Source: a virus (Duplodnaviria > Heunggongvirae > Uroviricota > Caudoviricetes). From it: 25,739 bases of DNA. Below are positions 18,001-21,000 of this stretch, one piece after another. The position numbers are program-made. Each line of letters begins with the position of its first letter. The stretch's first letter is position 1. Location: the IMG/VR virus record IMGVR_UViG_2526164664_000020, one strand, 5' to 3'.

Positions 18001-21000
18001 TCCTTCATTATCTGAGGCTTCAGGCAGAGACATTGACGGCGTTTTATGCGCGATTTCATCTATCGTCAGTGCATACTGGCGCGCTGACTCCCTGGCCTGC
18101 TCCTGATTCTGGTACAGCGTATACCATGCTGCTGCCCCCAGCATCACCAGTCCGGGTACGCCACCAACCAGTCCCAGCGCACCAGTCATCAGACGTGAGC
18201 CCACCGCCGTTGTACTGTTCAGCGCATTCTGGGCTGCGGTTCTGGCAGCAATATTTCTGTTCAGGCGTTCCTGTGTGGCCGCCAGACGGGCTTCTGCAGC
18301 AATCTGCATCTCCGTCCCGCGGGCTGCCGCCACGGCCTGCTGAGCACGGTACACGGCTGCTCTTGCCCGCGCCGTGGCAATCTGCGTTCCCCTGAACTGT
18401 GCTTCCGCCAGTGCCACTTCATTACGTGCTGCCGTCACAAGTCCTGCCGTGGCAGACACCGCTCCGGAGGCCATATTGCCAAAGTACCGGGCACCCCGAC
18501 GGCAACCAGCGCCCCCGCGGCTGTTGCCACATTATCAATATTACCGGCAACACCGTTCAGCACGCCGGAGAGCGTTTTCGTCACCCCGCTGGCTTCATTC
18601 GCGCCACCCACCCAGGCCATAAAGGCGTTTTCCACCTTTGTGATCCCGTCAGAGACCGTTTCCGGCATGGCGGCATATTCATCACGTAATATCCCCAGCT
18701 GGCTGATTAACGCGGGGACCACTTTATCCGCTGTCAGTTTTCCGTCATCCGCCATTGCCTTCAGATCTTTACGGGCCACGCCCATACCCGCAGCCAGTGC
18801 ACGTACGATCCGGTCTCCGCTTTCATTGACCGAATTAAACTCCTCACCACGCAATACACCCTGCGCCAGCGCCTGACTGAACTGGGTGATCACCGAGCCC
18901 GCCTCTGCCGTACTGGCACCGGAGATTTTCAGCCCCGTGGAAATGGCCTCCGTCACCTTCAGCACATCATCAGCACTGTAACCATATTCACGCATTGAGG
19001 CGGCCGAGCGGGCAAACAGGGCCGCATTATCCGAAAATGCCGTGCCTGTCCGCTGGCTGATATCCATCAGCACTTTCTGTGATGACGAAAATTCATCAGA
19101 TGACTGCGACGCCTGTTTCAGACGGGCATTCACGGAACTCCATTCATCGGCCAGAGAAATCAGGTGTCCGGTGGCAAAGGCACCTGCAAATGCGCCAGCC
19201 ATTCCGACAGCTGAACCGCGAATTTCCGTCAACTGGCTGTTCAGTTCTGCCAGGGCACGTCGCTGCTCCCGGGCTGCCGCAGCGGCCTGACGCCCGCCAT
19301 TCTGCAGGGTCCGGTAATATTCACTGCCCATACGGGAAGCCCGCTGGATCTCCGACTGGAATGACTGCGAATTTGCCGAAATTTTGATAATCAGTTCACG
19401 TAACGTCGCCATTCACCTTTCTCCGGGCGTAAAAAAACCGCCTCAGCGGTTCTCATCATTCATGACTGTGCTGCAAAGCTCAGCGCGTCTTCCAGCGCCG
19501 CAAACGGATCCACCTCCGGCTTATCCTCATCCTCGCCCCAGCAGAGCATGGCGTCCTTCAGTGCAACATTCATCCCCTGTGCCCCGAAAACCGCTTTCAC
19601 GATCTGTGCATTACGGATATCCCCGCGCTCATCACCCAGCGGGGATACCCTGTCGAACTCCATCCACATCATCGCCTCGCTCGCACTCAGGCTGTGCCGC
19701 AGTTCGGATAAGGTGCGCCCCAGACGGAGCGCAAGTCGCATCAGAAAGCGAATTTCCGGGCGGGCTACTTTTTTCTGGCCGACTCTGCATCAGCGATCAG
19801 TTCCAGTGCCTGACGCAGCAACCGGGCATGTACCGGACCATAGACGGCCAGCACCTGCTCACGGTCGTCCGGAGTGAACACCCGCTGCAGATCAGTATCA
19901 CACAGGACATCGCAGAACAGCGTCACATCCGCTTCCAGGTTACGGCGGGTTTTCGCCACCACCGACAGGGTATCGTCATCCTCTCCATCACCATTGAGCA
20001 CTTCCTGCCACAGATACCAGGCCTCTGCCGAAGGCTCCCGCAGCACCACGCTGACATTTCTCCATTCCGGCACCTTCACCGTTTTATGACGGAACCCCGA
20101 CAGTCTGGCCAGCGCCAGTGTTTTCAGATCTTTTGCCATAAGCCTTATCCGCCCGCACCATTAACCGTTACTGTACACGCATCAGAGGTAATGCTCTGCG
20201 GCTGTTCTGCAGAATCCGTTACCTCGCAGGTATAAGCCCCCTTATCACCTGACTGCGTATTGGCTTTACTGAAAGTGTCAGTAGTCTGTCCCTCTACCGG
20301 CTGACCATCCTTCTTCCAGGCGTGTTTATAAGGCGGCGTTCCCCCGTTGACACTGACTGACATTGTCAGCAGCGCACCGGTATTCACGGTAAGTGTCTTC
20401 TCCAGATTTTTCACAAACGCCAGCGGTACCACATAGGACACCAGTTTACCCTTCAGGCGAAGTGAAAACGTTGCAGCCACCACGCCGTTGGTACCGGATG
20501 ACCAGGTGTGCTGACGCACTTCCGCCAGGAACTTAAAGCCCTTACCGGACGGAAACTGCACCTTAAACGCATACACCGTGTCATTGTCATAGGCATCACG
20601 CAGGGCGTTCTGGGCCTGATTCAGATAAAAATTACCCGACATGGAAATCTCGGACGACGCCCCCAGACCGTTGATGTTCTCCTGCTCTGTGGAGCAGAGC
20701 GTGGTCACATCAATATCCTGTTTCTGACCGGCGGTGAACTGGACTTCCTTGATGGTGCAGTCCAGGCGCAGATATTCCGCCTTATCCATAGTTTCAGCAG
20801 TCGCCGGGGCAGATGAAATCATCACCTGCGTCAGCTGTGAGCGTTCATACAAAGCAGACATTCTGCCTCCTGATAATAAAAAACCCGCACGCGGCGGGGT
20901 ATGGGTTTTGTAGAAAAAAGAAAAAGTCACACCGTGACCTGAAACTCCAGGGTTGCACGGTAACAGCGGTTTTCCGGAATATAGTCCTGCATTTCACTGA

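Follow-up and report, generated by a model that had tools for sequence, protein, structure and literature searches.

The 25,739-nucleotide stretch analysed here, from IMG/VR virus record IMGVR_UViG_2526164664_000020 of the Caudoviricetes (hereafter the window), carries on its minus strand the genes for a pair of tail assembly chaperones, G and T. At the end of G the sequence A_AAA_AAG (19774..19768) stands directly before the stop codon, and this heptamer is very probably the programmed −1 ribosomal frameshift site of the chaperone pair in an HK97/lambda-like Escherichia coli prophage.

The site is already known and has already been reporter-tested as the same sequence. In Table S4 of Sharma et al. 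2014 (PMC4066793), cluster A_AAA_AAG_25 comprises 53 genes with ECs1801 as the representative, is labelled 'tail assembly chaperone; [true]' and corresponds to GeneTack programmed-frameshift cluster #10. ECs1801/ECs1802 of Sakai Sp9 (E. coli O157:H7; GeneTack Phage_TAC 862991913) is the same gene pair as that in the window, with identical G, heptamer and stop codon. The two regions differ at six of 680 nucleotides, none of them near the site, and T differs by two or three residues at its extreme C terminus. Antonov et al. 2013 (PMC3711429) inserted frameshift cassettes between GST and MBP and assayed them in E. coli; the Phage_TAC cassette gave 7% ± 0.79 frameshifting (Suppl. Table S2) and a member carrying G_GGA_AAG gave 6%. 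The 75 bases listed for the cassette, which Sakai Sp9 shares, correspond to window positions 19720..19794 on the minus strand, where they occur once and without a mismatch. The frameshift reporter that a sequence-only reading of this DNA had proposed as a check is thus already published for an identical 75 nucleotides.

Anatomy of the G-T junction

G occupies 19765..20139 on the minus strand, as do all features of the junction described below, and encodes the 124-residue chaperone that is the product of normal translation. The protein ends in ...AESARKK, specified by the codons AGA AAA AAG followed by TAG. The heptamer is in X_XXY_YYZ phase relative to G, and the zero-frame stop (19767..19765) abuts its 3′ side, exactly as the sequence-only reading had placed them. 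Because the −1 frame is closed upstream by a TGA at 19792..19790, both frames are open for only 22 nucleotides (19768..19789). The heptamer falls within this overlap, and nowhere else could a −1 shift fuse G with T. The first codon read after the slip is GTA (19768..19766), and from there the T extension (19460..19768) continues for 102 sense codons, VARPEIRFLMRLALRLGRT...FAAQS, to a stop at 19462..19460. The earlier observation that no stop interrupts the −1 frame between the heptamer and position 19741 is therefore correct. The predicted G-T fusion comprises 226 residues, residues 1-124 of G being followed by VARPEIRFLM....

The motif AAAAAAG is present in nine copies in the window, counting both strands, against 2.9 expected from shuffled sequence. 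Only the copy at the G-T junction links a long upstream open reading frame (ORF; 129 open codons) to a long −1 continuation (102 codons); the other eight were rejected as frameshift sites, as none is in phase to connect two such frames. From the heptamer frequency in the window we estimate that an in-phase copy would arise by chance in the 22-nucleotide overlap about once per thousand.

Both halves of the predicted fusion belong to established chaperone families. G aligns with the whole of PF06222 (Phage_TAC_1; E=2.3e-61, 205.6 bits against a cut-off of 25, profile positions 1-124 of 124) and with phrog_344, a tail assembly chaperone family in PHROGs. The sole solved relative is PDB 2ob9, 'Tail assembly chaperone' (E=1.8e-46). 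The −1 frame translation, which reads VARPEIRFLMRLALRLGRTLSEL...SFAAQS, contains a match to PF06223 (Phage_tail_T; E=6e-19, 68.7 bits against a cut-off of 25.9, positions 1-71 of 73). A single family of fused 224-residue G-T proteins, phrog_14766, spans both halves, with G at positions 1-122 and T at 125-224.

The genes in the window follow the order V-G-T-H. The 717-nucleotide coding sequence (CDS) upstream of G is labelled 'major tail subunit' in relatives, the order major tail, G, T, tape measure recurs in annotated relatives, and homologues of lambda M, L, K, I and J come after the tape measure gene. Judged by gene order, the locus takes exactly the position of lambda G and T. Of the features by which Xu, Hendrix & Duda 2004 define a tailed-phage G/G-T chaperone pair with a programmed frameshift, three are present in the sequence: a pair of ORFs separates the major tail gene from the tape measure gene, the downstream ORF overlaps in the −1 frame and has no start signal, and a phased slippery sequence conserved among relatives is located inside the overlap. 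Going by the published cassette of identical 75 nucleotides, both the short product and the minor fusion would be made from this locus.

In the mechanism that we propose, most ribosomes would terminate at the UAG of G, yielding the 124-residue chaperone. A minority (about 7% in the reporter with the exact sequence) would slip back one base while two lysine tRNAs occupy A_AAA_AAG. The tRNAs would then re-pair on AAA_AAA, GUA would become the next codon, and translation of 102 more codons would generate the 226-residue fusion. Weak pairing of the modified tRNA-Lys with AAG would favour the slip. Both the re-pairing of tRNA-Lys and its weak interaction with AAG are described in PMC5009743 (Figure 4 legend), and we infer the tRNA-level events at this locus from such established knowledge.

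The roles of the two proteins are likely to resemble those in lambda, where G and G-T have been assigned functions and a G:G-T ratio of ∼30:1 is required (PMC5009743). By this analogy, G and the G part of G-T would coat the tape measure protein and the T part would recruit the major tail protein, while a fixed low ratio of G-T to G, set by the frequency of the slip, would be needed for correct tail assembly. Homology similarly suggests that tail assembly requires G and G-T, that they bind the tape measure and major tail proteins, and that they do not occur in virions.

Conservation among relatives and the start of T

The arrangement was compared across 64 loci drawn from contigs representing one genome per species, together with several phages; the G proteins of the 64 loci share 43-64% identity with that of the window. 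Sixty-one of the 64 genome loci could be anchored, and the next two counts refer to these. T lies in the −1 frame in 59 of the 61, with an extension of 92-103 codons, and AAAAAAG occurs in phase near the end of G in 37. Other clades carry G_GGA_AAG (mEp390-like), CGG GAA AAG (HK97/HK544-like) or A_AAG followed by the stop (Klebsiella/Pantoea-like), and CGGGAAAAG is also among the slip-region variants of clades that lack AAAAAAG. The 38 unique sequences that bear AAAAAAG, a set that also takes in loci L001, L002 and L004 and the window itself, have the stop directly adjoining the heptamer in 28 cases and 3, 12 or 24 nucleotides downstream in the rest. When 31 sequences were aligned, no block of nucleotides other than the heptamer was invariant. 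Protein conservation in the −1 frame (KK-V-x-x-P-G/E-x-x-F-L-M-x-L-A-L-R-L-G-R-T) begins at the slip point. Taken together, the gene order, the pairing of PF06222 with PF06223, the match to phrog_14766, the phased heptamer in relatives and the conservation of T from the slip point bear out the initial proposal that the locus has the conserved G/G-T arrangement of tailed phages.

Ten prophage loci from Klebsiella, Pantoea, Erwinia and Yersinia (L011, L023, L025, L028, L031, L036, L037, L048, L052 and L057) have T in the −1 frame without an X_XXY_YYZ heptamer. They display only A_AAG directly followed by TAA (for example, GCA AAG TAA), which suggests a one-tRNA slip beside the stop codon.

Four natural in-frame G-T fusions (P0001, P0002, P0004 and P0101) were also found. 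They look like products of indels or poor assembly, with frame excursions and truncations, and were not used as evidence; this includes P0004, whose junction, KKVALPG, is what a −1 shift would give.

A curated precedent is provided by phage HK544, in which a two-piece CDS is labelled 'programmed frameshift' and likened to the HK97 chaperone. The HK97 chaperone as annotated in HK544 (PDB 2ob9) belongs to the same family, PF06222, and its G is 63% identical to that of the window (tblastn). As in the window, T of HK544 is in the −1 frame, with an extension of ∼96 codons, and the pair lies between the major tail and tape measure genes. In contrast to the window, where A_AAA_AAG abuts the stop, the slip region of HK97/HK544 is CGG GAA AAG and is located 15 nucleotides before the stop, and an extra small gene separates T from the tape measure gene. 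The lambda G/G-T pair has the same gene order, V-G-T-H, and the same T family, PF06223, and likewise undergoes a −1 shift at low level on a heptamer that ends with AAG. A further likeness to lambda is that no conserved stimulatory structure was found in the family of the window. The two systems differ in the heptamer itself, which is G_GGA_AAG in lambda. Within Pfam, G of the window matched PF06222 only, while lambda G presumably belongs to a different Pfam family.

The conserved heptamer could also be viewed as a site of transcriptional slippage, at which RNA polymerase adds an A within the run of six and the edited messenger RNA encodes the same G-T protein (…ARKKVARPE…). The protein made from the inserted A would be identical, and neither reporter nor mass data can separate the two routes. 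Longer runs do occur in relatives (A7 in 26, A8 in seven and A9 in one of the 38 unique sequences), and in another cluster efficiency rises with the length of the poly-A run (Antonov et al. 2013, PMC3711429). However, sister clades keep the same −1 arrangement with G_GGA_AAG (6%), CGGGAAAAG or GCA_AAG, which contain no homopolymer run, and what is conserved is not a run of given length but a phased heptamer with a final G, as is characteristic of tRNA-Lys slippage. The run in the window consists of only six A's, and E. coli RNA polymerase slips efficiently only on runs of about 8-9 or more. We consider it very improbable that G-T arises mainly by transcriptional slippage and favour slippage by the ribosome.

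The main value of these results is for annotation. RefSeq and most phage records list G and T separately, whereas the real products are most likely G (124 residues) and G-T (226 residues), with the shift at 19768. The start given to the separate protein is the ATG at 19739..19741, internal to the T frame, from which RefSeq, through PGAP, derives a stand-alone 'phage tail assembly protein T' of 282 nucleotides (93 residues); in other records an even shorter 'minor tail protein' is listed. If T were indeed a separate gene, translated alone from this ATG, the heptamer would be incidental. The presence of ATG at this position in most relatives is consistent with such a gene, and qualifies the sequence-only claim that T has no start signal of its own. 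It was correct, however, in that the codon lacks a Shine-Dalgarno sequence: the predicted duplex with the anti-Shine-Dalgarno sequence is −3.5 kcal/mol, at the level of the background (median −3.8), unlike all other starts scored in the operon, which range from −5.8 to −12.8 kcal/mol. Conservation of the protein (V-x-x-P-G/E-x-x-F-L), moreover, extends across genera through the nine codons that precede the ATG, and the methionine is missing in three loci (L027, L040 and L069). Were G and T independent genes, nothing would be expected to hold T in the −1 frame in 59 of 61 loci, with a slippery site placed in so short an overlap, and the identical cassette shifts at 7%. In lambda, no free T is reportedly made (Levin et al. 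1993). The ATG at 19741 is probably not a real start; an independent start for T was rejected on the Shine-Dalgarno energy and the conservation upstream of the codon, and a separate T gene is scarcely credible. Because −1 frame conservation starts at the slip point, the arrangement is kept in 59 of 61 loci and the ATG has no Shine-Dalgarno sequence, T is likely made only as an extension of G.

Frameshifting efficiency and candidate stimulators

The same heptamer, A_AAA_AAG, and the same slippage of tRNA-Lys operate in E. coli dnaX (tau/gamma). In dnaX, however, an upstream Shine-Dalgarno-like sequence and a downstream hairpin support a shift of ∼50% and the shifted product is the shorter one, whereas the site in the window is without stimulators of the dnaX type, shifts at ∼7% and gives a longer product. 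The dnaX-type arrangement, with a Shine-Dalgarno-like motif 6-17 nucleotides before and a hairpin 5-9 nucleotides after the heptamer, is not present in the window. These observations are consistent with the report that cluster A_AAA_AAG_25 has no Shine-Dalgarno sequence and hairpin stability that is not above average (Sharma et al., PMC4066793).

The downstream stimulatory structure for which the sequence-only reading had suggested a search did not emerge: 141 nucleotides around the site fold no better than shuffled sequences (z=0.34), and RNAalifold applied to 31 diverse relatives returned 0 consensus pairs. An upstream Shine-Dalgarno-like stimulator was rejected, as no such motif lies 6-17 nucleotides upstream of the heptamer in the window and only about half of the relatives have one. 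A 7-bp GC-rich hairpin, GCGCUCC-gucu-GGGGCGC, is located at 19715..19732 (minus strand), 36 nucleotides after the heptamer, over the T codons for A-L-R-L-G-R. Of 54 unique family sequences, about half preserve all seven pairs, with no compensatory changes. About half of the family retains the rare codons CTC and GGG within the hairpin even though nearby synonymous sites change, and an Arg-to-Lys replacement always abolishes the hairpin. The hairpin was rejected as a conserved stimulator: it is present in only about half of the family, shows no compensation and is too far from the heptamer for a classical stimulator.

In a lacZ reporter the bare A_AAA_AAG gives 0.29% frameshifting, which rises to 4.3% with the IS911 stimulator and to 39% with the IS3 pseudoknot (Sharma et al., PMC4066793). 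The 7% of the cassette is ∼25 times the value of the bare heptamer, although it should be noted that lacZ and GST-MBP reporters are not directly comparable. Because the bare heptamer without stimulators gives only 0.29%, some context appears to raise the efficiency to ∼7%. No open question becomes newly testable through this locus, and what lifts efficiency from the bare-heptamer level is the only loose end. An unrecognised stimulator within the family, for which the abutting stop and the hairpin at 19715..19732 are candidates, is conceivable but doubtful. In the case of the abutting stop, termination might be slow enough for the P-site tRNA-Lys to slip; the Atkins 2016 review, searched by text for a 3′-adjacent stop as a −1 stimulator, yielded no usable statement. 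Among the relatives, those whose stop is 12-24 nucleotides away have a Shine-Dalgarno-like motif upstream in 8 of 10 cases, against 11 of 28 of the others, and they also lack the hairpin. These counts, from sequences that are phylogenetically non-independent, offer only a faint hint of compensation.

Several points weigh against our interpretation of the locus, and none of them speaks against the frameshift itself. The published construct contained a further 18 nucleotides upstream and 45 downstream that were not printed, and the identity covers 75 nucleotides only. For this particular locus the G-T protein is a predicted product. The 7% must depend on a context that our searches did not pick out, given the low activity of the bare heptamer. 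Finally, the tape measure gene is frameshifted, and G and G-T may be without a working partner in this prophage.

Prophage context and neighbouring genes

The defect in the tape measure gene that the sequence-only reading had noted was confirmed. This gene, H, lies downstream of T at 16171..19412 (minus strand) and contains TMP_3, Phage_HK97_TLTM and Tape_meas_lam_C domains. It is split into ORFs of 325 and 767 residues by a one-nucleotide deletion after 18494 (window 18493..18494, minus strand), where, in comparison with the intact 3,243-nucleotide gene of L001 (E. coli SCU-106), a single T is missing (GGGGTTGCC becomes GGGGTGCC). Restoring the nucleotide yields a single ORF of 1,080 residues. 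In Sakai Sp9 the gene is likewise intact. The deletion may be genuine or a sequencing error.

If the deletion is real, the frameshift site could be a well-preserved relic, at which ribosomes would still shift while the prophage, with its broken tape measure gene, cannot build tails and has no use for G-T. Apart from the deletion, this is in keeping with the observation that the window matches no complete E. coli genome above 97.3% over 16.7 kb, and with the occurrence of up to seven copies of the prophage family per genome, many of which are known to be defective. Conversely, the single-base difference could be a sequencing error, and G and T display no decay, G being identical to ECs1801 of Sakai and T to that of L001, whose tape measure gene is intact. 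Other, related prophages in that cell might also provide tail parts or make use of them. We regard a relic as quite possible, if somewhat short of an even chance. It concerns the present usefulness of the element and not its identity, and is compatible with a programmed frameshift at the G-T junction. The earlier view that this part of the tail operon is intact despite the tape measure defect thus holds at the level of sequence; an intact site does not in itself demonstrate working function.

The 801 nucleotides around the site are 99.8% identical to chromosomal prophages of E. coli, and were found in 1,246 of 5,426 complete genomes at up to seven copies per genome. The region is also present in long-tailed phages that convert their hosts to Stx1a, Stx2a or Stx2c production. 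The window is from a lambdoid prophage of enterohaemorrhagic/enteropathogenic (EHEC/EPEC)-type E. coli, and the locus, at which recoding fixes the ratio of two proteins in textbook fashion, is carried by about a quarter of complete E. coli genomes.

Upstream of G, the major tail (tube) protein is encoded by the 717-nucleotide CDS at 20145..20861 (minus strand; phrog_158, E=5e-118; Pfam Phage_tail_2). The protein contains an in-frame C-terminal Ig-like domain (Pfam Ig_2/I-set) at residues ∼172-256 of the 261-residue listed ORF, and also matches 'Hoc-like head decoration' PHROGs.

The left part of the window (753..8760) includes chromosomal genes for a DUF1456 protein, a LytTR response regulator and a 5TMR-LYT histidine kinase, which we take to be yehS, btsR and btsS. 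The same part encodes a 402-residue ORF with no Pfam match (4639..5847), a 231-residue EspF-repeat protein resembling the effector TccP/EspFU (6349..7044) and a collagen-repeat tail fibre (7441..8760), followed by a Lom homologue (8819..9406). The end of the prophage and its cargo region are located in the left part of the window.

A poly-G difference was observed at the end of the portal gene, at ∼23465..23480 (minus strand), where the ORFs 23453..24817 and 22395..23456 meet. The window reads TTCA-GGGGG-ATACTGAGAAAATGA, a tract of five G's (G5); the 454-residue portal ORF (PF04860) stops there and a 353-residue ORF starts at an overlapping ATGA. The tract in Sakai Sp9 has six (G6) and the two parts form one ORF of 860 residues. 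Among IMG/VR contigs the G5 form occurs in 23 and the G6 form in 37. PGAP calls the G5 form 'frameshifted', and two ORFs of the G5 type are present in phage Lys8385Vzw. The frame seen in Sakai would be restored if tRNA-Gly slipped by −1 on AGG_GGG_A, and the G run might represent a second site of recoding, a hypervariable tract or noise from sequencing. The 353-residue ORF (22395..23456, minus strand) has no Pfam match and contains near-identical tandem repeats of ∼54 residues (…PVPADGKSITPDDVRPMLEQMVKEAVSHIPAPRDGRDYDPEVLKQAV…); it is 162 nucleotides shorter than the Sakai version.

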